A program made the translations under genes and the position numbers. Shown here piece by piece: positions 2,932 to 16,736 of a stretch of 24,164 nucleotides of DNA. A model generated the notes under the pieces. That model worked only from the letters and a program-made list of their open reading frames with translations, did not search any database and was not told where the DNA came from. This DNA is from Spirochaetaceae bacterium (GTDB taxonomy: Bacteria; Spirochaetota; Spirochaetia; DSM-2461). The stretch's first letter is position 1; every line of letters starts with the position of its first letter. Where the stretch lies: positions 1 through 24,164 of the forward strand of contig JAQICO010000151.1 of the NCBI GenBank assembly GCA_027858495.1, written 5' to 3'.

Positions 2932-3546
2932 ATGGGAAAGCGTAATGAAAAAAAGGAAGAGATAAAAAATAGAATACTTCAGGGAGCCGGTGAGGTTTTT
3001 GAAGTAATGGGTTTTGAAGATGCCACCATGCAGGAGATTGCCAGGAAAGCTGAGGTTGGCCTTGGAACCGCTTATAACTATTTCAAATCCAAGGAAGAGC
3101 TGTATATGCTTACTTTGGCAGATAAAATGAATCAGACCACTGGCGCTCCCATTGACGTTGAGGACAATTCACTTTCTGGTGCAGATATGGTTTGTCAGCA
3201 GATAATTAAACAGCTAAATACCCTGAAGCATATCCCCAAAAGCGTCTGGAAAACAGTTTTTGGTATATCCTTTAACTCTATGAAAAGGGATAAGTCTTTG
3301 CTGAAAAAAATTATGATGGCCGATTATCAGGCCATGGATAAAATTGCCCAATTGATTGATCTGTTAAATAAGAAAGGAAGTCTACAAGTCCAGGAAGACC
3401 CTAAAGTAATATCAGAAATCATTTACGGCTCTCTTTTTTTAGATATCATGATGTTTGTTTTTGAAGAGGAAAGAACCTTTCAGGAAACCTGTGATGCCAT
3501 ATGTAAAAAAATTCACTTTATTTTAGGGGAAAAACTTGATTTCTAA
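2932..3546 (+). CDS. TetR/AcrR-family transcriptional regulator (204 aa).
   Basis: The N-terminal HTH 'AGEVFEVMGFEDATMQEIARKAEVGLGTAYNYFKSKEELY' is a classic TetR_N signature. RBS is 'agggagattacATG'. A palindromic operator lies immediately upstream. Confidence 0.85.
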   Translation: MGKRNEKKEEIKNRILQGAGEVFEVMGFEDATMQEIARKAEVGLGTAYNYFKSKEELYMLTLADKMNQTTGAPIDVEDNSLSGADMVCQQIIKQLNTLKHIPKSVWKTVFGISFNSMKRDKSLLKKIMMADYQAMDKIAQLIDLLNKKGSLQVQEDPKVISEIIYGSLFLDIMMFVFEEERTFQETCDAICKKIHFILGEKLDF

Positions 3547-3566
3547 GAAAGGGTGTATTATTATAT

Positions 3567-3592
3567 TATTGTACTGTAGCACTAGTACAATA
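3567..3592 (+). promoter_or_regulatory. 26-bp palindrome TATTGTACT-N8-AGTACAATA in the 5' UTR of the GntR/YtrA gene; candidate GntR-type operator.
   Basis: The 9-bp arms are perfect inverted repeats with a GT...AC core, as expected for GntR-family operators. They sit directly before the RBS 'ggag' (3593-3596) and the ATG at 3603. A 'tattatt' direct repeat lies just upstream. Confidence 0.45.
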
Positions 3593-3602
3593 GGAGCTTT
3601 GA

Positions 3603-3989
3603 ATGGAAGAGCTTAAAAAACTGGAATTTCGTTTGGATCCCAAAGGGGGAGTTCCTTTCTACAAGCAGATTATTCTTCAAGTTGAGATGGCCATTGCAGA
3701 CGGTCGCTTGATTTCTGGAGAGCAGCTTCCTACTGTCCGGGGTCTGGCGGTGGATTTAAAGATTAATCCTAATACTGTTGCCAGGGCATATAACGAAATG
3801 GAGATTCGAGGAATCGTCAACACTCAACAGGGAACAGGAACCTTTATCAGCGATAGAGAAATTTCCATGACCGATGTGGAGCGTGAGAAAATCCTTACGG
3901 AATTGGTCCGTTCCTTTGTGGCACAGGCTGCTTCCTACGGTTTAACCCAGCAGGATCTATTGGAGTATTTACAGGAGGTTAAGTTATGA
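3603..3989 (+). CDS. GntR-family transcriptional regulator, short YtrA-like subfamily (128 aa).
   Basis: wHTH 'YKQIILQVEMAIADGRLISGEQLPTVRGLAVDLKINPNTVARAYNEMEIRGIVNTQQGTGTFIS' is typical of GntR N-termini. The short C-terminal region is characteristic of YtrA-type regulators, which usually govern adjacent ABC-transporter operons. Confidence 0.85.
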   Translation: MEELKKLEFRLDPKGGVPFYKQIILQVEMAIADGRLISGEQLPTVRGLAVDLKINPNTVARAYNEMEIRGIVNTQQGTGTFISDREISMTDVEREKILTELVRSFVAQAASYGLTQQDLLEYLQEVKL

Positions 3990-4014
3990 CGTCACTTTTT
4001 AGGGGGAACGTAAA

Positions 4015-5127
4015 ATGAATAGTTTACTGTTAAAAAAATTCGATAAAATAAAAAATATACAGGATAAGGCTATTCCTAAGGATTTTTCCTTCAACGGATT
4101 CTCCTGGATGGTTTTAATGGTTTTCTTAAGCGGAGGAATTTTCCTTCAATGGCTTTTAGGTCTCTTTCCAGAAACCCTGGAACTGATTGAAATCTGCGGT
4201 GCCTTTGTAGGTGCAGCTCTGCTTTTATCCCTGCTTGGCCAATGGACCGTTTTGCTGGTTGCATTAATGGTCCTATGGGGCGGCATTTATTATCAGCAGG
4301 GGCTTCAGTCTCCCTGGCTATTGATAACAGCCTCCATGGGACTCATTCTTGCCGCGTCCTTTCAGCTGGTTTACCAATGGGACAAGGTGGTGGTTTTGCG
4401 GATGGGCAAATTTAAAAAGGTCCATGGCCCGGGGCTTTTTTTAATGCTGCCGTTGTTGGACCGAATCGCTTCATTCATCGATACCCGTATACGCGCCACA
4501 GATTTTTCTGCGGAAAAATCCCTAACCATGGATACTGTACCGGTTCATGTGGATGCCCTGTGTTTCTGGATGATCTGGGATGCCCAGAAGGCTATTCTGG
4601 AGGTGGAAAATTATATAGAAGCGGTAACCCTATCTGCACAAACAGCTCTTAGAGACAGTATCGGCCATCATGATTTACATACCCTGCTTTCCGATCGAAG
4701 GGAATTAAGCCTGGAAATCCAGAAGGTTCTTGATGGAAAGACCAATTCCTGGGGTATTAGTATTTTATCGGTGGAATTTACGGAAATCATCATACCTCAG
4801 GAATTGGAGGATGCCATGAGTAAACAGGCTCAGGCGGAACGGGAGAGGAAATCCCGGGTCATATTAAGTCAGGCAGAGGTTGAAGTGGCCCGGGAATTTA
4901 AGAAGGCTGCGGATATCTATAGAGACGATCCCACGGCCCTGCAAATACGTTCCATGAACATGGTCTACGATGGATTAAAGCAAAAGAAGGGTTCTTTAAT
5001 GGTTTTACCTTCTTCGGCATTGGATCAGATGAATTTGGGTACCGTAATGGGAATGCAAGCCCAAAAAGAGATTAAAGAGATGGAAGAAAAGATAAGGGAA
5101 ACAGAGATAGAAGGAGGCAATAAATGA
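4015..5127 (+). CDS. SPFH/Band-7 (stomatin/prohibitin-like) membrane protein with an extended multi-TM N-terminus (370 aa).
   Basis: Residues ~30-120 hold 3-4 predicted TM helices (FSWMVLMVFLSGGIFLQWLLGLF, LIEICGAFVGAALLLSLLG, WTVLLVALMVLWGGIYY, WLLITASMGLILAASFQLVY). A Band_7 core follows ('VVVLRMGKFKKVHGPGLFLMLPLLDRIASFIDTRIRATDF...DALCFWMIWDAQKAILEVENYIEAVTLSAQTALRDSIGHHDLHTLLSDRRELSLEIQKVL...ILSVEFTEIIIPQELEDAMSKQAQAERERKSRVILSQAEVEVAREFKKAADIY'), ending in a coiled-coil E/K-rich tail. RBS is 'tagggggaacgtaaaATG'. Its stop overlaps the downstream ATPase start (ATGA). Confidence 0.8.
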   Translation: MNSLLLKKFDKIKNIQDKAIPKDFSFNGFSWMVLMVFLSGGIFLQWLLGLFPETLELIEICGAFVGAALLLSLLGQWTVLLVALMVLWGGIYYQQGLQSPWLLITASMGLILAASFQLVYQWDKVVVLRMGKFKKVHGPGLFLMLPLLDRIASFIDTRIRATDFSAEKSLTMDTVPVHVDALCFWMIWDAQKAILEVENYIEAVTLSAQTALRDSIGHHDLHTLLSDRRELSLEIQKVLDGKTNSWGISILSVEFTEIIIPQELEDAMSKQAQAERERKSRVILSQAEVEVAREFKKAADIYRDDPTALQIRSMNMVYDGLKQKKGSLMVLPSSALDQMNLGTVMGMQAQKEIKEMEEKIRETEIEGGNK

Positions 5128-5804
5128 TAGCCATTAATGATGTGAAACGAACCTATATCAGCGGTGATGTGAAGGTTCAAGCACTAAAAGGGGTTAACTT
5201 AACCATAGAAAAGGGAGATTTTATCTCCATTGCAGGGCCCTCGGGTTCCGGAAAAACCACATTGCTCAATCTGGTTGGCTGTATCGATAAAATCGACAGC
5301 GGAACCATCACCATTGATGATGTGGATGTGACCTCCATGAGTAAAGAAGAAAAGGCCTATTTTAGGAGAGACACCCTGGGATTTATCTTTCAGAGTTATA
5401 ATTTGATACCCGTTTTAACGTCATATGAAAATATTGCCTTTGCTCTAAATTTACTGGATGTGGATGACAAAGAAATTAAAGAACGCACCATGGAAATTCT
5501 CAAGGAAGTAGGACTGGAAGGCATGGAAGATCGCCGGCCCAACCGGCTTTCAGGAGGACAGCAGCAGCGAGTAGCCATTGCAAGAGCCTTGGTGAAACAG
5601 CCCAAGATTATTCTTGCCGACGAACCCACAGCCAATCTGGATTCCCATACCGGTGAAGAAATTCTAACACTGATGGAAGAAATGAACCAGAAACACAAAA
5701 CCACCTTTGTTTTTTCCACCCATGACAAAATGGTTATGGATTATGCCCACCGTTTAGTGGAATTACACGATGGAGTGATTAAGAGCGATATAAGACGCAA
5801 GTAA
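5124..5804 (+). CDS. ABC transporter ATP-binding protein, MacB/LolD/FtsE-type (226 aa).
   Basis: Walker A 'GPSGSGKTTLLNLVG', signature 'LSGGQQQRVAIARAL' and Walker B 'ILADEPTANLD' are present, plus the H-loop 'FSTHD'. RBS is 'gaaggagg'. A 4-bp ATGA overlap with the SPFH gene indicates translational coupling. Confidence 0.9.
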   Translation: MIAINDVKRTYISGDVKVQALKGVNLTIEKGDFISIAGPSGSGKTTLLNLVGCIDKIDSGTITIDDVDVTSMSKEEKAYFRRDTLGFIFQSYNLIPVLTSYENIAFALNLLDVDDKEIKERTMEILKEVGLEGMEDRRPNRLSGGQQQRVAIARALVKQPKIILADEPTANLDSHTGEEILTLMEEMNQKHKTTFVFSTHDKMVMDYAHRLVELHDGVIKSDIRRK

Positions 5805-5816
5805 AAGGAGGGCGCC

Positions 5817-7070
5817 ATGAAAGGATTGGTTTCCCTGGGATTAAAAAATATTCTGCGGTATAAACGCAGAACCATTATAACTGCCCTTGCCATCGGCATG
5901 GGTTTGATGATGTTCATATTAACCGATTCCATGCTGAAGGGTCTCAGCCTGGATTCTGAATTAAGTATTATAAAATACGAGGTTGGAGCGGGACGAATAG
6001 TCACTTCGGAGTATGCCGAGGACTTTGAGGATATGCCGTTAAAAGAAACCCTGGATCCTTCGGTGATGGCTAAGTTAGAGCAAGGTGATTTTATTTGGGC
6101 GCCCCGAATAGAATTTACCGCTGAGATGGTTTTTCGTAAAGATCCCTATCCTGTCTCGGGCCATATCAATGTCCGGGTAACCGCAGTGGATCCCCAACGG
6201 GATATACAGGTCTTTGATTTAGAGAATTTCCTCATTGAGGGAAGATATCCCTTTCCTCAGGAAGAGGGTGTTGTTCTGGGAAGCTGGCTGGCGGAAGATA
6301 TGGGAATTCACTTGGGCTACCCCGTAGATTTGAGTATTCAAACACGCTTTGGAGGCCAGGAGTTGATGGAACTGACGGTGGTTGGAATTGTGGAGAGTCC
6401 CGATTCCATGATCAATCGTGGCTTGGTAATGGTTCCATTAAAAGTAGCTCAGGATTATCTGGAGATGGATGGTCAGGTAACTCAAATCGCGGTGAAGGCT
6501 CCCATGTGGCGTTCTTTGGAGAATGGAGACCTACGGAGGCTGAAGGATTTACTTCAGGGGACAAATGGAGAATTCTATCCCTGGGAATTCTGGTCTCAGG
6601 ATTTTCTTTCCATAGCCGAGGGAAAACAAACCTCTGCCTCCACCATTCTTTTTCTTGTATTTATCATTGCTGCGGTGGGAATCTCCAACACCGTGTTAAT
6701 GAGTATTTTCGAACGGGTTCGAGAGCTGGGGATGATGCGGGCCTTAGGTCTGACCGAAAGGGATGTCCGGCTGCTCTTTTTAATAGAATCCGGAGCCATC
6801 GGTTTACTTGGATCCATCCTGGGTGTGATCATGGGCATTTTAGTTACCTGGGGAATGGTTACAAAGGGTATCGATTATTCCAGCTATACCGATATATTGC
6901 GGGAGCAGAATATGGGATACCGAATGGCCAGCGTGTTTTATGGTGTTTGGGTGCCCCAAACCATGATATTGGCGGCGGTGTTTGGCGTGGTTTTATGTGT
7001 TGTCATCGCCTGGTTTTCCACAAAAAAGATTAATCGTCTGGAGATAACCCAGTGTCTGAGGTTCCAGTGA
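5817..7070 (+). CDS. ABC transporter permease, FtsX/MacB/LolC-E family, with a large periplasmic domain (417 aa); permease 1.
   Basis: N-terminal TM 'LKNILRYKRRTIITALAIGMGLMMFILTDSMLKG', then a ~220-aa extracytoplasmic domain. A C-terminal 3-TM FtsX module follows ('ILFLVFIIAAVGISNTVLMSIFERVRELGMMRALGLTERDVRLLFLIESGAIGLLGSILGVIMGIL'). RBS is 'aaggaggg'. Confidence 0.85.
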   Translation: MKGLVSLGLKNILRYKRRTIITALAIGMGLMMFILTDSMLKGLSLDSELSIIKYEVGAGRIVTSEYAEDFEDMPLKETLDPSVMAKLEQGDFIWAPRIEFTAEMVFRKDPYPVSGHINVRVTAVDPQRDIQVFDLENFLIEGRYPFPQEEGVVLGSWLAEDMGIHLGYPVDLSIQTRFGGQELMELTVVGIVESPDSMINRGLVMVPLKVAQDYLEMDGQVTQIAVKAPMWRSLENGDLRRLKDLLQGTNGEFYPWEFWSQDFLSIAEGKQTSASTILFLVFIIAAVGISNTVLMSIFERVRELGMMRALGLTERDVRLLFLIESGAIGLLGSILGVIMGILVTWGMVTKGIDYSSYTDILREQNMGYRMASVFYGVWVPQTMILAAVFGVVLCVVIAWFSTKKINRLEITQCLRFQ

Positions 7071-7128
7071 TGAAACAATATAATTTTGGACCCCTTGGGT
7101 CAAAAGAAAGAAGTATAGGAGGGTTAGA

Positions 7129-8382
7129 ATGAAACTGGCTCAAATTGCATTAAGAAATATCAGCCGTAATCGGCGTCGAAGCATTTTGTCTGGTTCCGCT
7201 ATTTCCGTGGCCACCATGAGTATTGTGTTGCTCTTTTCTTTAATGGCGGGAATGACCGTGGATTTAAAAGACAATATGCAGACCTATAGAACCGGTGCTA
7301 TCCGGCTTAGGAACCGGGATTTTGGGAAATATGAAAGACTGAATCCAACACACTTAGTGGTTAGAAACGGTCAAGCCATCATGAATATTCTGGAAGAGCA
7401 GGAAGAGATATCCAGCCTGTCTCCCAGAATCAATTTTATGGGAGCCTATACCTGGGATGATAAATTAAAAAATGTCATGGGTGTCGCCGTGGATTTCCAG
7501 CGGGAAGAGGGCTTTCAGAATATTTCAGAGGTTTTGGTTGCCGGCCGGCTTCCCACTCCTGGAACTTCTGAAGCACTGGTTGGTGTTAAAATGGCCCAGA
7601 AACTAGGGGTTAATTTTGAAGACGATTTAGAGGATAAAATAACCATCGTCACCACCACGGCTCAAAGAAGAAAGAAACTTTTCACCATAGAGATTGTGGG
7701 TATTGCCGGATTTCCCATGTCTGCCTTAAACGATGCCATGGTTTTAATACCCCTTGATAGGGCCCAAGACCTGCTGCGCATGCCCGATGCCTATTCTGAA
7801 ATCCTGATAAAGGTGGACGAAGATGTGGTTGACGTAGATCTGTACACGCCTCAATTGGCAGAACTGCTCCCTCTGGAAACCGAAAGAGAAGAAGATTCCC
7901 TGGAATTGAAAAGCTGGAAAGAAGACAATACCATCTGGGGTATGATGAGCATGGCTCAGGCCATGTATATGATCTTTGCCTTTTTCTTCTTCGTGCTGGG
8001 CAGCTCGGTAATCATCAATACCACCATGATGGTAATTTTTGAACGCATGCGTGAAATCGGTACCCTTGCAGCCATGGGGATGAGAGGTCGAGAGTTAACT
8101 AAATTATTCTTCTTAGAAGCCTTTTTTATATCCTTCTTCGGGGCCTTGGCGGGATTGATTGTGGGCATGATAATTACCCAGATTTTTCATGTCTTCGGAT
8201 TGAATCTGGGAGCCATGATGGAGGGCATCGACTTTGATATTTCCACCATTATCTACCCTCAGCTGGATCTCTTTTATACCGCCTTTACCTTTGTCTTTGC
8301 CGTGCTGGTGGCATCGTTGGCAACCTTTATACCCTCAATAAGAGCTTCAAGAATCGAACCGGTAGACGCGTTGAGGGCATAG
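7129..8382 (+). CDS. ABC transporter permease, FtsX/MacB-like (417 aa); permease 2, divergent paralog.
   Basis: Topology matches permease 1: N-TM 'IALRNISRNRRRSILSGSAISVATMSIVLLFSLMAG', a periplasmic domain, and a C-terminal module 'MYMIFAFFFFVLGSSVIINTTMMVIFERMREIGTLAAMGMRGRELTKLFFLEAFFISFFGALAGLIVGMII'. RBS is 'taggaggg'. Confidence 0.8.
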   Translation: MKLAQIALRNISRNRRRSILSGSAISVATMSIVLLFSLMAGMTVDLKDNMQTYRTGAIRLRNRDFGKYERLNPTHLVVRNGQAIMNILEEQEEISSLSPRINFMGAYTWDDKLKNVMGVAVDFQREEGFQNISEVLVAGRLPTPGTSEALVGVKMAQKLGVNFEDDLEDKITIVTTTAQRRKKLFTIEIVGIAGFPMSALNDAMVLIPLDRAQDLLRMPDAYSEILIKVDEDVVDVDLYTPQLAELLPLETEREEDSLELKSWKEDNTIWGMMSMAQAMYMIFAFFFFVLGSSVIINTTMMVIFERMREIGTLAAMGMRGRELTKLFFLEAFFISFFGALAGLIVGMIITQIFHVFGLNLGAMMEGIDFDISTIIYPQLDLFYTAFTFVFAVLVASLATFIPSIRASRIEPVDALRA

Positions 8383-8408
8383 TAGATTTAATATTTTAGG
8401 AGGAAAAA

Positions 8409-9134
8409 ATGAAAAATTGGATAATTGTAAGCATGATATTTGCATTGACCACAGGGCTTTGGGCCATCACCGGTGATGAAATTATAGAACGTTCCGATGC
8501 CCAGCAGCGGTTTGATACAATGAAAAGTACTGGAATAATGAGAGCTGATGACCGTTTTGGTACCATTGAAAGTACCTTCATTTCACATAGCAGAGGAGAC
8601 AATGAGTTTTTGCTGGAGTTCACCAATATCGAAGAACAGGGTCAAAAGGTTTTACGGGTGGACGGAGATATCTACCTTTACGATCCCGATGCCGAAGAAA
8701 CCCTCAGAATGAGCGGTTCCTCCTTAAAGGATTCCATGTTCGGAGACATCTCCTATGAAGATGTCTCCGAGGGAAATGATACACTGAGTAAATATGATGC
8801 AGCGTTATTAAAGGAAGAAGCCATAAACGGAGTGAACTGTTACCTGGTGGAATTGACTGCCAAAACCCGCAGCGTGCCCTATCATCGTCAGCTCCTATGG
8901 ATCAGAGTGGACAATTTAGTACTGCTGCGTGGAGAATATTATTCCCGCCGGGGAACGCTGCTCAAGGAAATCCGTGTCTTGGAAACCATGGAGATCGGCG
9001 GTAAAGTGGTGTTGTCCCACTTGATTCTTGAAGATAAGGTTCGTGAGGATTCCTCTACCGAATTGATCATGAATAATATTGAGGTGAACATTGAATTGGA
9101 CGACCGTATGTTCACCGAGGAAGCGTTATTCTAA
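8409..9134 (+). CDS. LolA-like periplasmic protein (outer-membrane lipoprotein-sorting protein family, Pfam LolA_like type), 241 aa with signal peptide.
   Basis: Signal peptide 'MKNWIIVSMIFALTTGLWA'. The mature region is a beta-rich fold with the family-typical 'MSGSSLKDSMFGDISYEDV' (GSDFSYEDL-like) motif, plus 'CYLVELTAK' and 'YYSRRGTLLKE' segments. Strong RBS 'aggaggaaaaaATG'. It is embedded between FtsX permease genes, a typical neighbourhood for this family. Confidence 0.6.
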   Translation: MKNWIIVSMIFALTTGLWAITGDEIIERSDAQQRFDTMKSTGIMRADDRFGTIESTFISHSRGDNEFLLEFTNIEEQGQKVLRVDGDIYLYDPDAEETLRMSGSSLKDSMFGDISYEDVSEGNDTLSKYDAALLKEEAINGVNCYLVELTAKTRSVPYHRQLLWIRVDNLVLLRGEYYSRRGTLLKEIRVLETMEIGGKVVLSHLILEDKVREDSSTELIMNNIEVNIELDDRMFTEEALF

Positions 9135-10378
9135 TGAAATCCAAGTATATATTTACATTGGCCATAAAAAATTTAACCCGCCATAAGCGCAGGACCTTTA
9201 TTACTGTGTTGGTACTGGCCATCGGTATAGCAACCTTTATTCTTCTGGACTCCATGCTTATTGGAGCCCGGAGGGCTTCAGAGATAAATCTGATCCGCCA
9301 TGAGATGGGATCGGCCAAGTTAGTAACACCGGAATATTGGGACGAGTGGAGGGATTTCCCCTTGAAATCCTCCGTGGAGAATCCCCGGGATATAATCCAG
9401 GCCCTGGATGATGCGGGAATTACAGCAGTCCCCCGGATACAGATAAATACCACCATGGTAATCAATTCAGGAATTGGAGGTTCCCTGCCCTCCCTGCTGA
9501 TTGGAATGGATATGCAGCAGGATTCCAAGGTTTTTGATACCCAGGGAGCCCTGAGCAGCGGACGGCTGCCCCAACCGGGTGAGGAAGCCTTGTTAATGGG
9601 ATCATGGATGGCAACAGATCTGAAATTGGAACTGGGTGATATTGTCTTTTTTCAAGTGGTTGACCGTCAGGGAGGCAATGAGGTCCTGGAAGCAGAGATT
9701 GTGGGGCTACTGGATACTCCCGACCCCATGGTAAACCGTATGGGGGTATATATTCCCCTGGATACCCTGGACTATTATCTATTCATGGAAGAAAGTGTAA
9801 CGGAAATTGCCCTATCCTTTCCCATGGGACCGGGAAAACGATCCGCAAGAAAAAACGCTGAGAACATAGCCAAGGATTTCGGCTTGGAGCTTCATACTTG
9901 GCAGGATTGGTCACAGGATTATCTCGCTGCTTCTGAGGGTGACAAATACGGATCTTTCATTATTCTCGTGTTGGTGTTTATTATTGCGGCAGTGGGTTTT
10001 TCCAATACACTGCTGATGGCATTGCTGGAACGGGTACCGGAAACTGGAATGATGCGGGCCCTGGGAACCACACAGGCCCAGTTGAGACGGTTGTTTTTAA
10101 CAGAATCTCTAATGCAGGGCCTGGCAGGATCTCTATTTGGAATATTCCTTGGTGTTTTATTTAATATCCCGGTGGTACTAAAGGGAATCGATTACAGCAG
10201 TATAATGCGAGATATGAGTGTGGGCTATCGCTTTACGGGAATAATTTACGGAGTCTGGGCTTCCAGCAGCTATATTATCTCTATGTTAAGCGGGGTGTCC
10301 ATTGCACTTGCCGTGTCCTGGTTCAGCATTAAAAAAGCTCTCAAATTGAAGATAACCGATTCCATTCGGGGGAATTAG
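9134..10378 (+). CDS. ABC transporter permease, FtsX/MacB-like (414 aa); permease 3, close paralog of permease 1.
   Basis: Aligns with permease 1 along its whole length. Examples: 'IKNLTRHKRRTFITVLVLAIGIATFILLDSML' vs 'LKNILRYKRRTIITALAIGMGLMMFILTDSML', and 'LVLVFIIAAVGFSNTLLMALLERVPETGMMRALG' vs 'LFLVFIIAAVGISNTVLMSIFERVRELGMMRALG'. Its start overlaps the LolA-like stop (TAATG). Confidence 0.85.
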   Translation: MKSKYIFTLAIKNLTRHKRRTFITVLVLAIGIATFILLDSMLIGARRASEINLIRHEMGSAKLVTPEYWDEWRDFPLKSSVENPRDIIQALDDAGITAVPRIQINTTMVINSGIGGSLPSLLIGMDMQQDSKVFDTQGALSSGRLPQPGEEALLMGSWMATDLKLELGDIVFFQVVDRQGGNEVLEAEIVGLLDTPDPMVNRMGVYIPLDTLDYYLFMEESVTEIALSFPMGPGKRSARKNAENIAKDFGLELHTWQDWSQDYLAASEGDKYGSFIILVLVFIIAAVGFSNTLLMALLERVPETGMMRALGTTQAQLRRLFLTESLMQGLAGSLFGIFLGVLFNIPVVLKGIDYSSIMRDMSVGYRFTGIIYGVWASSSYIISMLSGVSIALAVSWFSIKKALKLKITDSIRGN

Positions 10379-10440
10379 ACTCAGCTCATTTCCAAGTATA
10401 ATTCCTTTCGACAGAGGGAGTGTCTTAGAGGAGAATAACA

Positions 10441-11649
10441 ATGAAAAAAAATATAATCATCATCTTTGTACTGGGTTTATTGACTTCCCTGGCCGCAGAG
10501 ACCAGTCTGAGTCTGGATATGCGTTTTATGCAGTCCCTCTATCGCGGTGCGGATAATAAATTATACAGTCAACCTGCAGGTACGGTGGAAATGACCATGC
10601 GATCTGCAGGAAACAGCGATGTTAAGGCCGATCTAATGATCGATTACATACCCATGAATGCCCCGCCAGGCGGAATGGCGCTGCCCCTTTTTGATCTTAA
10701 AAAAGCCTCGGTAAAGCTTCGTTTCCCCGGTCTTAGAATAACCATGGGTAAAACCCGGGTAGGCTGGGGTGAAGGGTCGGTTTTTAATTCCGGCGCTGTG
10801 CTTTTTGGAAGTCTCTCTCCCCTGGTTGACCTGACCCAGGATGAAGCCCGAACTGATACAGCCTGGCTGACCTTGCTTCGCTGGAGTCCCTCGGGAGATT
10901 TCTGGGTGGAGGGGATTTATATGCCTCCCACTCCCTCCTGGGATATTTCCATTGATAATGATGCCGACGATGTTACCCCGGAATATTTTTCCTTAAATAA
11001 CAGTGTTCCCGATGTCTACAGCAGTTCTGCCGGCTTGCGGATGGTGGGTGAATTGGGAGACCTGATTGTGGAAACCGGATATCTTGCCAAGGGAGAGTTA
11101 AAGGCCCTGGGTGATGTCACTGGTCATCGGCCCTATATTACCCTTCATGGAGAAATGTATTTTGATCTTTATGGCTCGGCATCCATGGCCATACCCTGGC
11201 AGGATTTTGACTGGGATACAGATCGAGGGTCCTTTAATATCAGCGCAGGTCTGTTCCGTCAGTTTCAACTATGGTATGACGGTACATTGTCCGCACGGAT
11301 GGAATTTTTGGTCTTTCCCTATCAAAAATGGGAGGAACAGGATTTCAGGCTAAATCCTCTGGCAAATGAGACCTACAGTCTTTATTTATACCCCGAGTTT
11401 AATTTAGCCATAGGACGAAATTTAAATATCCCCCTAATGGCCATGATTTCACCGCTGGATCAATCTGCCCAGATAACCGCGGGATTCTCCTGGAAGGTAT
11501 ATCAGGGATTCAGCTTCTTGGGTTACGGAATCTTTTCTGTAGGCCAATCGAAAGATGTTTTCGCCTGGGACAGACTATCCTCCGATCTTATGGTGGGCGA
11601 TGTAATAAATGGCTGGTCCGTAATGACTGGGCTTAGGTATACCTTCTAA
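10441..11649 (+). CDS. Predicted outer-membrane beta-barrel protein (402 aa) with signal peptide and C-terminal beta-signal.
   Basis: Signal peptide 'MKKNIIIIFVLGLLTSLAAE'. Amphipathic alternating-hydrophobic strands run throughout. The C-terminus '...WSVMTGLRYTF' has the OMP beta-signal pattern: terminal Phe and hydrophobic residues at -3 and -5. RBS is 'agaggag'. No family assignment possible by eye. Confidence 0.55.
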   Translation: MKKNIIIIFVLGLLTSLAAETSLSLDMRFMQSLYRGADNKLYSQPAGTVEMTMRSAGNSDVKADLMIDYIPMNAPPGGMALPLFDLKKASVKLRFPGLRITMGKTRVGWGEGSVFNSGAVLFGSLSPLVDLTQDEARTDTAWLTLLRWSPSGDFWVEGIYMPPTPSWDISIDNDADDVTPEYFSLNNSVPDVYSSSAGLRMVGELGDLIVETGYLAKGELKALGDVTGHRPYITLHGEMYFDLYGSASMAIPWQDFDWDTDRGSFNISAGLFRQFQLWYDGTLSARMEFLVFPYQKWEEQDFRLNPLANETYSLYLYPEFNLAIGRNLNIPLMAMISPLDQSAQITAGFSWKVYQGFSFLGYGIFSVGQSKDVFAWDRLSSDLMVGDVINGWSVMTGLRYTF

Positions 11650-11722
11650 TAAACTGGGATTGTGGGAATATTTAATAATCTCTAAACAGCTTTTGTCATG
11701 GTGTGTTATGATTATGCCTAAT

Positions 11723-12805
11723 ATGAAATTTTTTATATCGATTATTAGCCTATTATTATTTACCCAATGTCTCAGTTATGATGGACCGGAGATGGATTTA
11801 TCCAATGATCCCTTTTATTTGGGAGCAGACCTGTCATCGGTAAATGAAATGGAAGATCAAAATATTGTTTTTACCAGGGGAGATCAAACCATTGATCCCT
11901 ACGAATTTTTTTCCCATTGGGGCATGAATCTTGTAAGACTTCGCCTTTGGCATAGCCCTACTTGGACGGAGTACTTTACCTTGCCTGATGTCAAAAAAAG
12001 TATATCCAGGGCCAGGGAGCAGGGAATGACCGTTCTCTTGGATTTCCATTATTCCGATACTTGGGCTGATCCGGGAAGTCAAATCCCCCCTGCCAGCTGG
12101 CAGGGATCCTCCGATGAAGAGATGGCGGAGCAGTTGTATTTGTACACCTATGAAACCTTGGAGGCTCTGAACCAACAAGATTTACTTCCAGAAATGGTGC
12201 AGCTTGGTAATGAGATAAATCAGGGAATATTAAAATCACAAAGTGATATAGATTGGCCCAGACAATCCTTGTTATTCAATGCTGCCATTGCTGCTGTTCA
12301 TGAGATGGAGCAGACCAGTGGGAAATCCATTGAAATTATGCTGCATATAGCTGGGCCGGAGAATGCCCAATGGTGGTTTGATAAAGCCATAGAGGCAGGC
12401 ATTCAAGACTTCGACCTCATTGGGTTATCCTACTATCCCACGTGGAGTACCCTCGGGCTAAAGCAATGCGGTTCAATGCTGAGTTTTTTGGCTCAGCGAT
12501 ACCAGCGTCAAGTGATGATTGTTGAAACTGGATATCCATGGACATCGGAGGATTCCATAGATACAGCGGATAATATCCTTAATAAAGGGTTGCGCCGCTA
12601 TGGAATTTCCAAAGACGGACAGAGGCAATTCTTTGATGATTTGGTAGATATTGCCAGGGAGTCAGGAGCAATCGGCGTCGTTTACTGGGAGCCCGCATGG
12701 GTGTCCACCGATTCCCCCAGTCCCTGGGGAGTTGGTTCCCATTGGGAAAATATAACCTGGTTTGACTTTGAGAATCGATTACACCAATCATGGGAAACTC
12801 CATGA
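11723..12805 (+). CDS. Glycoside hydrolase family 53 endo-beta-1,4-galactanase, secreted or lipoprotein (361 aa from the ATG at 11723).
   Basis: Shows the GH53 hallmarks 'DFHYSDTWADPGSQ', acid/base motif 'VQLGNEINQG' and nucleophile motif 'MIVETGYPW'. The N-terminal signal is 'MKFFISIISLLLFTQC'. The track ORF begins at a TTG at 11660 and ATGs also occur at 11708 and 11714, so the exact start is uncertain. Confidence 0.75.
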   Translation: MKFFISIISLLLFTQCLSYDGPEMDLSNDPFYLGADLSSVNEMEDQNIVFTRGDQTIDPYEFFSHWGMNLVRLRLWHSPTWTEYFTLPDVKKSISRAREQGMTVLLDFHYSDTWADPGSQIPPASWQGSSDEEMAEQLYLYTYETLEALNQQDLLPEMVQLGNEINQGILKSQSDIDWPRQSLLFNAAIAAVHEMEQTSGKSIEIMLHIAGPENAQWWFDKAIEAGIQDFDLIGLSYYPTWSTLGLKQCGSMLSFLAQRYQRQVMIVETGYPWTSEDSIDTADNILNKGLRRYGISKDGQRQFFDDLVDIARESGAIGVVYWEPAWVSTDSPSPWGVGSHWENITWFDFENRLHQSWETP

Positions 12806-14316
12806 CAGATCTTAAGGATTTTCTTCAATCTCATAGGCTTTTCACTCATCTTAACAGTAAACAGTTAAAATCCTTGGTACAGCATTGCAGGGTATTACAA
12901 TGCCCTATGGACTCCACTTTGTTTTATCCCAGAGAAAGAATCGATTCTCTTCTATTGGTGAGGGACGGATGTCTTTCCTTGGGAAAACAGAGGGCCTTTG
13001 GGGGCAACAGCCTGTTTATAAGCTCTCTGGCCCTTCCAATAGAAATGGATGAACCATTGATTGCCGCAGAAGAAAGTCGGATTATCATTCTAAAAAGAAA
13101 TGCCTTTCTTCGTTGGATTCGTGCCAATAGAGGAGCATTAAGACGTTTGGGTGCACATACTTTTGGCCAAAAAGAATGGGGATTCCCCTGGATTTTTTGG
13201 AAGGAATACGGTGCATTGCTGCCCCTGGGGCGAAAAGTGAAGAACCAGAAGGCCCTTTTGGTTCTCCGACGATGGTGGCCCCTATGGCTGGTTCGGCAGC
13301 TTCCATTTGTGGGTATAGCAGGGTTCTCCCTGTTCTTTCCTGTGGTTTGGTGGCTCGCCATACCTGCAGGACTGGCATTCCTCTTTTCTTTGCTTCTAAG
13401 ACATTCCAACGGGCTTTTTATAACACCTGCCTCGGTAATTGTCAGGATTTTTAAACTTAGAGGACTCCATCGTCAGGTGATGAAGATACCCCTTGAGCAA
13501 ATAAAGGCTCTGGAAATTCAGCGCCGTGGGATAATACCCTCCATATTAAGGGTGGGTAGTCTGGCCATGAAAACCAGTTCCTTACAGGGCTCCTTTGTGG
13601 TCCCTCAGATCAGAAAACCAGAAAGGGCAGAGCAGCTGCTAAACTCTTTAAGAGAACAAAGGGGTGGAGCGAAACCCGACAGATTAACCCGACTAAAAGA
13701 AGCATGGCAACGTAGAAAGTCCGATAATAATCACCCTAAAGAACTTTTCCAAGGATCGCTCTATAATCCTACTGTAAAAACCCAAGAGGTAATCCGTTTT
13801 AAGAAATCTCCCTTTGTATTATTTAAACATATATTTATACCATTATTGATATGGTTACTTCCGCTGAGCGCCTTGGTTTTCCAATTTTTTCCCGAGCCTT
13901 GGAATATTCCTCTTCTCCTTTTATCTCTTCCTCCTTTAGGATTGCTGCTCTATCGATGGGAGGATTGGCGAAATGATATTTTTAAGGTGGCCGGTGATTC
14001 TGTTTTTGACGTAGATAAAAAGCCCCTGGGTAAAGAGATGACCCGCCGCCAAACCCAGTTGGTTCAAATAGAAAATATCACCGCACGTCAGAAGGGTTTT
14101 GCTTCCTGGCTGTTCAATGCAGGGTCTGTTCGAATTATCTTACCGGGAGAAACCGGAGAATTTGAGTTTGAGGATGTAAAAGATCCTTGGTTTGTACAGG
14201 ATGAACTATTAAGGCTGCGCACAGAGGCTTTGGAAAAACAAAAAATGAGCCAACAGGATGAACGTTTTCAAGAGCTTTTGGATTTGGCTGATCTTTTGGC
14301 TCAAGAGCTTCGATAA
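12802..14316 (+). CDS. Membrane protein with an N-terminal cNMP-binding-like domain followed by two TM-hairpin + bPH_2 (YdbT/YdbS-like bacterial PH) modules (504 aa).
   Basis: Start taken at the ATGA overlap with the GH53 stop at 12802-12805 (the track start at 12790 is also possible). Residues ~10-110 resemble a degenerate cNMP-binding fold ('LFTHLNSKQLKSLVQHCRVLQCPMDSTLFYPRERIDSLLLVRDGCLSLG...FGGNSLF'). The first TM pair is 'LLVLRRWWPLWLVRQLPFVGIAGFSLFFPVVWWLAIPAGLAFLFSLLL'. bPH-like 1 is 'ITPASVIVRIFKLRGLHRQVMKIPLEQIKALEIQRRGIIPSILRVGSLAMKT'. The second TM pair is 'IFIPLLIWLLPLSALVF...LLLLSLPPLGLLLY'. bPH-like 2 is 'IFKVAGDSVFDVDKKPLGKEMTRRQTQLVQIENITARQKGFASWLFNAGSVRIIL'. A coiled-coil C-tail follows. 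Confidence 0.55.
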   Translation: MTDLKDFLQSHRLFTHLNSKQLKSLVQHCRVLQCPMDSTLFYPRERIDSLLLVRDGCLSLGKQRAFGGNSLFISSLALPIEMDEPLIAAEESRIIILKRNAFLRWIRANRGALRRLGAHTFGQKEWGFPWIFWKEYGALLPLGRKVKNQKALLVLRRWWPLWLVRQLPFVGIAGFSLFFPVVWWLAIPAGLAFLFSLLLRHSNGLFITPASVIVRIFKLRGLHRQVMKIPLEQIKALEIQRRGIIPSILRVGSLAMKTSSLQGSFVVPQIRKPERAEQLLNSLREQRGGAKPDRLTRLKEAWQRRKSDNNHPKELFQGSLYNPTVKTQEVIRFKKSPFVLFKHIFIPLLIWLLPLSALVFQFFPEPWNIPLLLLSLPPLGLLLYRWEDWRNDIFKVAGDSVFDVDKKPLGKEMTRRQTQLVQIENITARQKGFASWLFNAGSVRIILPGETGEFEFEDVKDPWFVQDELLRLRTEALEKQKMSQQDERFQELLDLADLLAQELR

Positions 14317-14335
14317 TTTTCCCGATTCTAAAAAT

Positions 14336-15904
14336 ATGAGATACCAATGGCTTTGTCTATTATTTATATTCCTTTTGAGTTTTGGGCTCCATGCCCAAGA
14401 GGCCTATTATAGAGCTGTAGGCTACGATGCCTTCCATCGTATTGAGGGTCAATTTCCTCTGGATGCCACTGACAGTGAGGATCTAAACTGTTATCGTTTT
14501 ACCTATGACGAATTAGAAGAGCCTGTACGTATTGAGTACCTAAATCGCGGCAGAGCTCTGGCAGATCCTTTTTTTAAAGTTCCCGTTGTAGAAATTGAGT
14601 ATTCAGAAGGTTTTATCCACAGAATATATAAGGATTCTCAGGGCAAACCGGCTCCCGACGAACAAGGTGTATACTCACAACGGTTAAAATTAAACACACA
14701 GGGATTCGCTCAATCTCTCTTTAACTATGACCGCTTGGGTAATCTACGCAGTGACAATATGGGAGTAGCAGCCTATTACTGGAATCTTGATAAGAACGGT
14801 TTATCCGTTGAGGCGTTATTTCTTAACAGTTATGGAGAGCCCGTGCAAAATCGAGAAGGTATATCTTTAATAAGATATGACTATGATGAAGCTTTCAGAA
14901 TGAAGGAACTTCGCTATCTAAACCCTCAGGGAGAACCCATAACCAGTAATGAAACGGCCATCGCTGGAATGACTTTCAGTTATAATGATCAGGGATTGAA
15001 GGAAGAGCAAACTTTTTTGGATGAACAAGGAAACCTTGCCAGCAATATAGAAAATATATCAAAAATCCGCTGGGCCTACGACGAACAGGGCTCTATGCTT
15101 CTGCAGGAGCATTATGATGATCAGGATAATCTAACCACCGATGTGCACCATGTGGCAGTATACTTTTGGGGTTATGACTCAAGGGGTAATAGAATCCTTC
15201 AGGAGCATTACAATACCCTGGGAGAGCCCACTGAGGATGATGCCGGAGTTTTCCGTTATAGATGGATTTATTACGAACAGGGCAATGAACTTGAAAAAAT
15301 CAATGAAAATCTAGATGGTTCTCTTACCCTAGATGATTGGGGGCTTGCATCCTACCGATGGACCTTTGATGAACGTGGTCAAATCACCGAAGCCAAGTAT
15401 TACGGAATAGACGACAGCCTGAAAGAAGACAATTGGGGCGTTGCCATTTATCAATGGGATTATGACGATAGTGGAAATATGGTTGAATCCAGGTCTTTTT
15501 CTGATTGGGAAACCCTGCAGGATGATTCCAGAGGTGTTGCTGTTTACCGTTGGGCCTATGATGATCGGGGAAACCGTATAATGGAAAATCATTATGACAG
15601 CCGAGAGATTCAGGTAGAAGACAGCGATGGAATTGCTTCTATCGGCTGGAGTTACGATGATGAGAATAATATGAATAAGCAGGAACAGTTTGGACTATAC
15701 GGACAATATAGAGCCGATAATAAGGGTGTGGCCATATATCATTGGGATCATGACCGTTTTGGGAATATCATCGAAGAGACTTACCTCGGAATCGATGAAC
15801 AGAACGTAGAGAATGTTTCAGGTATTGCCTTGGCCAGATGGTCCTATGACAACCTTGGAAATAGATTAAGAGTTGCCAGATTTGATCGAAAAAGTATTCC
15901 CTGA
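14336..15904 (+). CDS. Secreted tandem-repeat protein with ~14 YD-like (Rhs/YD-repeat-related) 33-aa repeats (522 aa from the ATG at 14336).
   Basis: Signal peptide 'MRYQWLCLLFIFLLSFGLHAQ' (the track start at 14258 would add a second hydrophobic stretch). The repeated unit is 'G-[VI]-A-x-Y-x-W-x-YD-x-x-GN-x-[IL]-x-E-x-[YH]-(x8-10)-D-x-x-G'. Examples: 'VAVYFWGYDSRGNRILQEHY', 'VAIYQWDYDDSGNMVESRSF', 'VAVYRWAYDDRGNRIMENHY', 'VAIYHWDHDRFGNIIEETYL', 'IALARWSYDNLGNRLRVARF'. There is no C-terminal toxin or other domain. Confidence 0.55.
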   Translation: MRYQWLCLLFIFLLSFGLHAQEAYYRAVGYDAFHRIEGQFPLDATDSEDLNCYRFTYDELEEPVRIEYLNRGRALADPFFKVPVVEIEYSEGFIHRIYKDSQGKPAPDEQGVYSQRLKLNTQGFAQSLFNYDRLGNLRSDNMGVAAYYWNLDKNGLSVEALFLNSYGEPVQNREGISLIRYDYDEAFRMKELRYLNPQGEPITSNETAIAGMTFSYNDQGLKEEQTFLDEQGNLASNIENISKIRWAYDEQGSMLLQEHYDDQDNLTTDVHHVAVYFWGYDSRGNRILQEHYNTLGEPTEDDAGVFRYRWIYYEQGNELEKINENLDGSLTLDDWGLASYRWTFDERGQITEAKYYGIDDSLKEDNWGVAIYQWDYDDSGNMVESRSFSDWETLQDDSRGVAVYRWAYDDRGNRIMENHYDSREIQVEDSDGIASIGWSYDDENNMNKQEQFGLYGQYRADNKGVAIYHWDHDRFGNIIEETYLGIDEQNVENVSGIALARWSYDNLGNRLRVARFDRKSIP

Positions 15905-16123
15905 TTAACCAAGCTCAGCTATGGCTAAATAGGCTTTATCCTTTTCATCGGGATATAGGTCCCCTGGGACTTTATCCTCTCCTACTGAAGTGGCCACCAT
16001 ATAGCGGGCACAATGTAGACTGTTACTCTCACAGTATTCCTGTTTGAGTTTATCTATATCTGGTGTGTCGGTCATTTTTCCCTGACCGAAGGGGCATTTG
16101 TCGTAAATCTCACAATTTGCCAA
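15905..16123 (-). CDS. Hypothetical small Cys-containing protein (72 aa), possible metal-binding.
   Basis: 'MANCEIYDKCPFGQGKMTDTPDIDKLKQEYCESNSLHCARYMV...' has Cys pairs C4-x5-C10 and C31-x6-C38. RBS is 'aggaaagaaaATG' and a near-consensus promoter lies upstream. The composition is protein-like. Its stop abuts the YD-repeat gene stop (tgaTTA). Confidence 0.4.
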   Translation of the reverse strand: MANCEIYDKCPFGQGKMTDTPDIDKLKQEYCESNSLHCARYMVATSVGEDKVPGDLYPDEKDKAYLAIAELG

Positions 16124-16154
16124 TTTTCTTTCCTAGTTGTTTTGATATAGTAAT

Positions 16155-16183
16155 ATTGTAAGGCCAAATTGTCCTGCGGTCAA
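16155..16183 (-). promoter_or_regulatory. Near-consensus sigma70 promoter TTGACC - 17 nt - TACAAT on the minus strand, upstream of the 72-aa ORF.
   Basis: Minus-strand sequence reads 'gagTTGACCgcaggacaatttggcctTACAATattactatatcaaaacaactaggaaagaaaATG'. It lies in the 124-bp gap after ispF. Confidence 0.35.
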
Positions 16184-16247
16184 CTCAGAAGAATTTGAAA
16201 AGCTGTGGGTTCAGAGTGAAGATTTTCGTTCTCTTCTTCACAATAGC

Positions 16248-16736
16248 TTAACCTATATTCTCTGTTGCTAATAATACAACCACAGAGGCTTCAATGGATA
16301 ATCCTTCACCAACAGGACCAAGTTTCTCCGCCGTTTTTGCTTTTACGGATATTTGTTCTTCCTGGATTTTTAACAGATTTGCCAGACTTTTTTTTATGGG
16401 TTCTATCCATTGAGATAATTTGGGGCTTTGAAGGACCACGGTACTATCTAGGTTTATTATCCTATATCCCCGTTTTTCAATTTTACTCATTGTATCTTTT
16501 AACAAAAAGGCGCTATCAACATCCTTCCATTTTTCCTGACTTGGGGGATAATATTTGCCAATATCGCCCAAGGCTAGTGCTCCCAGTAATGCATCTATGA
16601 TTCCATGGATCAACACATCTCCATCGGAATGAGCCTCTTCTCCAAATCCACAGGGAATATGAACTCCTCCCAATATTAATGGACGTCCCAATACCAAGGC
16701 ATGGCAATCCCAACCCTGGCCTATTCTTAGACTCAT
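16248..16736 (-). CDS. ispF: 2-C-methyl-D-erythritol 2,4-cyclodiphosphate synthase (MEP pathway).
   Basis: 'MSLRIGQGWDCHALVLGRPLILGGVHIPCGFGEEAHSDGDVLIHGIIDALLGALALGDIGKYYP' matches the IspF consensus (RIGxGxDxH...SDGDV..H...DALLGA.ALGDIG). It has a 4-bp ATGA overlap with ispD. Confidence 0.9.
   Translation of the reverse strand: MSLRIGQGWDCHALVLGRPLILGGVHIPCGFGEEAHSDGDVLIHGIIDALLGALALGDIGKYYPPSQEKWKDVDSAFLLKDTMSKIEKRGYRIINLDSTVVLQSPKLSQWIEPIKKSLANLLKIQEEQISVKAKTAEKLGPVGEGLSIEASVVVLLATENIG

Follow-up and report, generated by a model that had tools for sequence, protein, structure and literature searches.

A conserved membrane-protein/YD-repeat gene pair of Spirochaetota with a GH53 galactanase gene probably inserted immediately upstream

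We analyzed a complete contig of 24,164 bp (in the following, the window) from a public metagenome-assembled genome labeled 'Spirochaetaceae bacterium', and within it three adjacent genes on the + strand. The first (11723..12805) encodes an endo-beta-1,4-galactanase of family GH53 with 360 aa. It is followed by a membrane-protein gene at 12802..14316, referred to as ORF2 (open reading frame 2), whose product of 504 aa is a predicted inner-membrane protein from a Spirochaetota subfamily of proteins that join a cyclic-nucleotide-binding (CNB) domain to bacterial PH (bPH) domains. The third gene, ORF3 (14336..15904), encodes a repeat protein of 522 aa, predicted to be Sec-exported and built from YD-type beta-hairpin repeats. 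An earlier sequence-only reading had proposed that the three genes form one unit, i.e., a galactan-sensing or galactan-binding surface module. Loci used for comparison carry L-numbers and proteins carry P-numbers.

All three ORFs are present at these coordinates, such that the gene models of the sequence-only reading are correct. The GH53 stop codon TGA (12803-12805) and the ORF2 start codon ATG (12802-12804) share the tetranucleotide ATGA at 12802..12805 (+ strand), as can be read directly from the sequence. ORF2 ends at 14316 and the ATG of ORF3, which opens its signal-peptide-encoding part, lies at 14336, which leaves a gap of 19 nt. Both junctions thus agree with their earlier description. 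We rejected an alternative ORF2 start at ATG 12790, since orthologs begin with 'MTEALDF' or 'MLEALDF' and NCBI likewise gives 504 aa, as well as an alternative ORF3 start at ATG 14258, since orthologs begin at the downstream ATG. For GH53, an alternative call by JGI starts at ATG 11708 and yields 365 aa. NCBI lists the GH53 protein as MDA3850620.1 ('glycosyl hydrolase 53 family protein') and the ORF2 protein as MDA3850621.1 ('cyclic nucleotide-binding domain-containing protein').

The junction of an outer-membrane-protein-like (OMP-like) gene, GH53 and ORF2 recurs with 99.7% identity in L055, an independently assembled scaffold from the same population; hence, the junction in the window is not an assembly chimera. 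With regard to the overlap itself, the + strand run from TetR to ORF3 contains 11 neighboring gene pairs of the same direction. Overlaps of 4 nt are found in two of them, namely Band7/ABC and GH53/ORF2, and an overlap of 1 nt in one more (LolA-like/FtsX). IspF/IspD, on the - strand of the same contig, overlap by 4 nt, too. Since 4-nt overlaps recur on the contig, the GH53/ORF2 overlap is not beyond chance and the ATGA alone says little about function. A promoter/terminator scan gave counts no higher than in shuffled sequences, and an Rfam search of positions 10000-16500 returned no match.

The GH53 protein matches PF07745 with an E-value of 8.1e-94 (314.8 bits vs. a cut-off of 24) over profile positions 1-336 of 340, while comparisons with solved GH53 structures yield E-values of about 2e-47 to 3e-45. 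In GH53 enzymes, the catalytic acid/base is the glutamate of an N-E motif and the nucleophile that of an E-T-G/A motif. Both are present here as GNEIN and VETGY, whose aligned counterparts in PDB 7osk are GNEIN and AETAY. The N-terminus carries the signal peptide MKFFISIISLLLFTQC, and with Cys16 the protein may be a lipoprotein. Judged by family, it is an intact, signal-peptide-bearing endo-beta-1,4-galactanase and an ordinary new member of PF07745, so that the profile match and the conserved catalytic motifs bear out its earlier identification. It shares the full-length PF07745 match, the NE and ETG motifs and the signal peptide with known GH53 galactanases (Bacillus licheniformis YvfO/GalA, PDB 1R8L; PDB 7OSK). 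In contrast to these, the window enzyme is a compact, single-domain protein of 360 aa, has its nearest database relatives at 54-56% identity and sits outside any galactan utilization locus; a family scan of the window proteins found no other galactan-utilization gene in the window. The closest GH53 relative with usable context (54% identity) is found at 1462-2529 of L053, a 30.7-kb contig from the same sample as L001 (SRR31444225). There, the gene lies beside a Fucose_iso_C-domain gene and a C11 peptidase, i.e., in a sugar-metabolism context, and has no ORF2-like neighbor.

ORF2 is composed of an N-terminal domain and two repeated membrane modules. Its AlphaFold2 model shows a mean pLDDT of 72.7, with values of 85-92 for the N-domain. 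The latter is a CNB-homology domain (12802..13149, + strand like all following parts; aa 1-116) that is predicted to be cytoplasmic and has a degenerate phosphate-binding cassette. The first transmembrane (TM) hairpin spans 13273..13404 (aa 158-201; model helices 158-178 and 180-201; hydropathy window >1.5) and is followed by bPH module 1 at 13411..13662 (aa 204-287, with the PF03703 match at aa 212-282), which is modeled as a beta-sheet with a subsequent C-terminal helix. In the model, a linker connects this module to TM hairpin 2 (13810..13974; aa 337-391; model helices 337-359, 365-374 and 376-391, in agreement with hydropathy), whose periplasmic turn reads 'PEPWN'. The remainder at 13975..14310 comprises bPH module 2 (aa 392-460) and a long C-terminal helix (aa 462-503).

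PF03703 (bPH_2) is matched by module 1 only (26.8 bits vs. a cut-off of 22, E-value 6.2e-06). Module 2 has no Pfam call, and its profile found no match among PDB sequences. A profile-profile comparison with hhalign of the two modules, each taken as TM hairpin plus PH part, unites them with a probability of 98.9% (E-value 2.4e-17). That is, calling the protein a 'double bPH' protein with two YdbT-type modules was right, with PF03703 speaking for the first and hhalign for the second. Across the family, conservation is highest in module 2, which carries the motif WEDWRND...DxDxKPxG.

For the N-domain, the fold and the binding function have to be separated. PF00027 (cNMP_binding) spans profile positions 5-88 of 89 and remains below threshold with 12.9 bits (vs. 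27.5; E-value 0.11), and a search with full-length ORF2 gave no match at E<=1. Of 15 proteins of the family, 11 match PF00027 and 13 match PF03703. Fold searches confirm the CNB fold, i.e., a beta-barrel plus helices. The ORF2 segment aligned to the phosphate-binding cassette, GGNSLFISSLALPIEMDEPLIAA, lacks both the glutamate of FGE and the arginine of R-[ST]-A; aa 65-92 are entirely free of Arg and Lys, and the beta4-5 hairpin is deleted. This loss of the cassette is common to P0002, P0003 and P0163. The residues suggest that the CNB-like domain is probably nucleotide-blind, like the cyclic-nucleotide-binding homology domain (CNBHD) of KCNH channels. The earlier label 'cNMP-binding-like' (cNMP: cyclic nucleotide monophosphate) thus holds for the fold, and fails with regard to the PF00027 threshold and the cNMP-contacting residues.

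Compared to window positions 12927-13121, the L055 scaffold shows an in-frame deletion of 195 nt (L055 3661-3665). It removes ORF2 residues ~43-107, i.e., the CNB-like core, and leaves a protein of 439 aa (P0001). Given the low coverage and the N gaps of L055, this deletion is possibly an artifact.

The periplasmic turns of both ORF2 hairpins consist of few uncharged residues (<= ~7), while their flanks are rich in Arg and Lys. Following the positive-inside rule, all globular parts of ORF2 are predicted to be cytoplasmic. Turns this short make direct sensing of periplasmic galactan by ORF2 unlikely.

The combination of CNB and bPH domains is found in more than 1,250 cluster representatives (50% identity, E<=1e-3), and Pfam pre-annotations of relatives list PF00027 and PF03703 together. 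Our literature searches, which mostly returned rice 'BPH' papers, found no paper that describes CNB+bPH proteins. The architecture is thus catalogued though experimentally uncharacterized. The sequence-only reading had called it not known to be characterized, which stands; unknown it is not, given the number of representatives and their Pfam and NCBI names.

With the Firmicutes proteins YdbT/YdbS (COG3428/COG3402) and DdF/DdE, ORF2 shares repeated units of TM hairpin and bPH_2 domain within one polypeptide and PH domains that are predicted to be cytoplasmic. The likeness is one of architecture: ORF2 has two modules while YdbT has three, and it adds the N-terminal CNB-homology domain. Furthermore, in contrast to B. 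subtilis ydbST, ORF2 has no YdbS-like partner gene; its neighbors are GH53 and ORF3, i.e., it has a secreted YD-like partner instead. Chloroflexota CNB+bPH proteins (P0006, P0008, P0009; ~565-575 aa) are homologous over the full length, with the same architecture and a shared second-module motif WxDWxND...DIDxKPxG. They keep the canonical FGE...R[ST]A, whereas the window clade lost the cassette and the beta4-5 hairpin. The resemblance to the CNBHD of KCNH/hERG channels is a structural analogy only (14% identity), the membrane moiety being unrelated.

ORF3 starts with a Sec signal peptide (aa 1-20, 14336-14395) with the cleavage site LHA|QE. An N-terminal cap precedes the hairpins, and the repeats follow a strict period of 32 aa that is directly visible in the sequence. 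PF05593 is matched with 35.6 bits (cut-off 22), which is a summed score, as no single Pfam stretch passes alone; TIGR01643 (YD_repeat_2x) scores 35 bits vs. 15.8. Signal peptide and both profile matches thus confirm that the repeat protein is secreted and YD-like, as had been read from the sequence. The AlphaFold2 model (pLDDT 86.8, pTM 0.71) shows 16 regular consecutive beta-hairpins, and the protein ends inside the repeats. Top Foldseek matches in the PDB are the shells of Rhs proteins, Tc-BC and teneurins with E-values from 4e-19 to 1e-13 and TM-scores of just 0.12-0.37. We found neither an Rhs core nor a toxin domain in ORF3, nor any other Pfam or NCBIfam match at E<=1. Since these parts are missing and the TM-scores are low, we read ORF3 as a short, open and coreless YD-type sheet, for which the model predicts no closed cocoon.

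ORF3 thus shares the YD motif (YDxxGN) and the local geometry of the hairpin repeats with Rhs/YD proteins such as Rhs effectors of the type VI secretion system, Tc toxin BC and teneurins. It differs from them in its size of only 522 aa with ~16 hairpins, in its repeat period of 32 aa, in its global TM-scores of at most 0.37 and in being without the Rhs-associated core, the aspartyl-protease plug and the C-terminal toxin. Outside of the window, YD-like repeats of 32-33 aa form the C-terminal part of homologs with 700-900 aa (P0011, P0013, P0016, P0021, P0032). These proteins carry a TIR domain at the N-terminus, together with an Arg-rich stretch and one TM helix, i.e., a layout with cytoplasmic TIR and extracytoplasmic repeats, which recalls Toll-like receptors with the domain order reversed. 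No paper on TIR+YD proteins was found in our literature searches.

To what extent the three genes belong together can be read from related loci. ORF2 and ORF3 are adjacent on the same strand in the window as well as in L001, L004, L056, L059, L060, L061, L062 and L063. Their spacing is -1 nt in L056, L059 and L061, 16-19 nt in the window, L001 and L004, and 51 nt in L062 and L063. The closest ORF2 homologs (52-53% identity) are those of L001 and L004, where an ORF3 ortholog (60-62%) follows 16-19 nt downstream and where the downstream genes, i.e., a 72-aa ORF, ispF, ispD and carD, are kept as well. A more distant full-length ORF2 homolog from Spirochaetes metagenome-assembled genomes (P0165, 28-29% identity) is followed by an ORF3 ortholog (43%) with a 1-nt overlap; upstream of this pair lie NfeD, FloA, a small ORF and EamA, and the opposite strand downstream of it carries genes for DUF4340, ABC_transp_aux and ABC-2. 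A metagenome scan using the ORF3 alignment A5 only retrieved five further loci (39-43% identity), and 5/5 of them have an ORF2-like gene immediately upstream. The same kind of scan with alignment A2 found nothing, and a genome scan with A2 over the GTDB species representatives found only 41 distant Chloroflexota loci and no close relative. Neither GH53 nor an ORF3-like gene neighbors the CNB+bPH genes at these 41 loci, and the distant ORF3-like contexts (P0024, P0025) have no ORF2-like neighbor.

The flanking genes differ between the two contexts in which the pair is found. In L056 (1036-8179), L059, L061, L062 and L063, the pair directly follows an operon of NfeD, FloA and a small ORF, with or without EamA in between (context B). 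Among the context-B loci, FloA identity is 85-99%, while ORF2 shows only 40-44% identity between the groups L056/L059/L061 and L062/L063. Between sublineages, identity drops to 23-29% for ORF2 and 38-43% for ORF3; that is, the secreted ORF3 evolves more slowly than its membrane partner. The adjacency of ORF2 and ORF3 is conserved in three deep spirochaete sublineages, and the linkage of repeat gene and membrane-protein gene noted in the window is sustained by their adjacency in nine sequence-distinct related loci.

GH53 does not take part in this conservation. It is beside ORF2-ORF3 in 0 of 9 sequence-distinct related loci and present only in L055 from the same population. A tblastn search with GH53 over the 63 fetched loci matched only L055 plus L053 and L054, which had been fetched using GH53 itself. 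The gene order in L001/L002 is OMP-like gene, 22-bp spacer, ORF2 and ORF3, and the window holds the 1.15-kb GH53 gene at the site of this spacer. The OMP-like gene of L001 (6803-7975) is the ortholog (57% identity) of the 402-aa gene upstream of GH53 in the window and ends 22 bp upstream of the ORF2 ortholog; the GH53 insertion is thereby delimited on its upstream side. In L004, the pair is preceded by a divergent HD-GYP regulator and there is no GH53, which is also missing from L056-L058 and L059-L063. The contexts of distant ORF2 homologs (P0006, P0007, P0009, P0164) show neither a GH53 nor a YD-like neighbor. Ordered by identity, L001 and L004 are sisters with the window as their outgroup, and the GH53-free context-B loci lie outside all three. 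Given these relationships, a single gain of GH53 in the window lineage would be the most parsimonious history, if modestly so. The three-gene unit of the sequence-only reading thus fails for its GH53 part: the trio does not recur in related genomes, an outcome that had been named beforehand as speaking against it.

Taking these observations together, we consider it probable that the region consists of a conserved two-gene module (ORF2 and ORF3) and a single-gene GH53 insertion immediately upstream, and is not a three-gene functional unit. GH53 would most likely act alone, in the periplasm or at the surface. Its probable co-transcription with the neighboring genes would simply follow from its arrival within a tightly packed string of genes of one direction, and the ATGA overlap would be a by-product of the compaction of this string. 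ORF2 is a YdbT-like, predicted inner-membrane protein with a degenerate CNB domain, two modules of TM hairpin plus bPH domain and a C-terminal coiled-coil-like helix, and ORF3 a predicted Sec-exported, periplasmic open sheet of 16 YD-type hairpins.

With regard to function, we infer that the ORF2-ORF3 pair may be a cell-envelope or membrane-maintenance module rather than one for carbohydrate sensing. In B. subtilis, the sigma-W regulon for envelope stress includes ydbS-ydbT alongside flotillin (floT, yqfB) and the MacB-type yknWXYZ (PMC3498285), and the YdbS/T-like DdE/DdF are required for export of the leaderless bacteriocin enterocin DD14 (PMC8657885). It is these two analogies, along with the position of the pair after the NfeD-FloA operon in the other sublineages, that point to an envelope role. 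In the window and L001, the pair ends a cluster that contains an SPFH protein, a MacB-type ABC system with three FtsX permeases and a LolA-like protein.

Several points weigh against the two-gene module with an inserted GH53 or against parts of it. In L008, ORF3 stands between FloA and the ABC genes but ORF2 is missing, and in L052 the ORF2 homolog is followed by FtsK, not by ORF3. The two contexts also cannot count as entirely independent, as the 72-aa ORF found downstream of ORF3 in the window recurs a few kb downstream of the pair in L059/L061, and some of the adjacency could therefore be inherited synteny. With so little periplasmic surface on ORF2, it is difficult to see how a periplasmic ORF3 could contact it directly. 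A role in envelope maintenance is proposed by analogy only, and the loss of cNMP binding is deduced from residues alone. Finally, the polarity of the GH53 change depends on parsimony over few genomes (one gain vs. a gain plus a loss), and neither flanking repeats, apart from chance-level pairs inside GH53, nor a compositional anomaly mark the insertion.

Some of these points would equally fit three functionally unrelated genes, with the adjacency of ORF2 and ORF3 being inherited synteny within one spirochaete family and free of functional coupling. We regard this as unlikely, though it has to be taken seriously. The 72-aa ORF is present in both contexts, the high FloA identity indicates that the context-B genomes are related, the genes occur without each other in L008 and L052, and ORF2 offers almost no periplasmic surface for contact. 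However, the pair survives a considerable turnover of its flanks (EamA and the ABC-2 operon are each found in some loci only, the window has gained GH53, and L004 differs in its upstream region), retains an operon-scale spacing from -1 to 51 nt, and was found with ORF2 immediately upstream in all five loci that had been retrieved by ORF3 alone. These observations argue for a coupled pair.

More speculative, and somewhat less likely still, is an extension of the envelope reading. According to this, the pair would be an undescribed Spirochaetota envelope module made of a YdbT-like bPH oligomer with a nucleotide-blind CNB-homology domain and the Sec-exported, coreless YD-type ORF3. The 32-33-aa repeats, as also found in the TIR-TM-repeat proteins, would then serve more generally to recognize ligands outside the cytoplasm, with ORF3 acting as a free-standing receptor in the periplasm that is coupled to its membrane partner.

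The galactan module, in which GH53 would set galacto-oligosaccharides free, galactan would be bound by the YD-like protein and signal transduction would fall to the CNB/bPH protein, we consider very improbable. It draws on the tight, co-directional packing of the three genes (ATGA overlap, 19-nt gap), on the lack of a terminator-like site at either junction and on the same junction in the independent scaffold L055. Against it, GH53 is absent from every related ORF2-ORF3 locus, no further galactan genes are nearby, 4-nt overlaps are routine on the contig, and solved YD/Rhs structures are, by their descriptions, shells and not lectins. ORF2 has no periplasmic domain and its cNMP pocket residues are missing. 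Synteny, ORF2 topology and these residues thus contradict the surface module of the sequence-only reading and make sensing unlikely.

The least credible reading, i.e., ORF2 as a Pycsar-type or other defense effector whose CNB domain controls a membrane-disrupting TM module with ORF3 as sensor, appeals to a CNB-plus-TM layout that resembles PycTM-type effectors, to PycTIR CNB domains among the ORF2 fold matches (8jsk, 8jsj) and to the fusion of ORF3-type repeats to TIR domains in other bacteria, but it faces the lack of any PADLOC match for ORF2, ORF3 and P0165 and of an adjacent cyclase gene at any locus examined, the lost phosphate-binding residues, and the vertical conservation of the pair among housekeeping genes (ispDF, carD, floA).

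The trio would have implied a new glycan-sensing system, which the evidence does not support. What the locus offers under the two-gene reading is a clean case in which the gene of a carbohydrate-active enzyme has entered a tightly packed, operon-like series of genes, and a caution that a start/stop overlap alone is a poor basis for reading function. Beside this, a conserved and uncharacterized Spirochaetota pair joins bacterial PH-domain membrane proteins with short coreless YD-repeat proteins, such that both protein classes gain a defined partner and a testable context beside flotillin/NfeD operons. What is new in the Spirochaetota subfamily is that a putatively nucleotide-blind CNB domain occurs in one protein with two bPH modules and that this protein has a conserved partner of the coreless YD type. 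The degenerate CNB domain would be a bacterial counterpart of the eukaryotic CNBHD idea, i.e., a CNB fold that is kept without cyclic-nucleotide binding.

The genes next to the three are as follows. Upstream of GH53, the 402-aa gene at 10441..11649 (+ strand) encodes a protein that has a signal peptide, ends in RYTF and is a candidate outer-membrane barrel; it has no Pfam match. Downstream, the Cys-rich 72-aa ORF (15905..16123, - strand) converges on ORF3 with 0 nt between the stops and has no family match. It is conserved with 78% identity in L001 and 58% in L004, and in L059 and L061 it lies beyond a four-gene ABC-2/aux/DUF4340 operon. Judged by the position of this ORF, the window clade resembles the arrangement of L059/L061 with the ABC operon deleted. 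In L001 and L004, the 72-aa ORF and ispF are separated by an HhH-GPD (endonuclease III-like) gene, and in the window only by a spacer of 124 bp (16124-16247).

Further upstream, positions 2932-11649 (+ strand) encode TetR, GntR, an SPFH/HflK-C-like protein, an ABC ATPase, three FtsX/MacB-type permeases, a LolA-like (TP_0789-like) protein and the 402-aa protein, and this whole co-directional cluster is conserved in L001. Near the contig end, a Mutator/IS256-family transposase is split into two ORFs on the - strand (276-1076 and 1098-1502). The ORF of 134 aa corresponds to the N-terminal and that of 266 aa to the C-terminal part of PF00872, which probably reflects a frameshifted or degraded insertion sequence.

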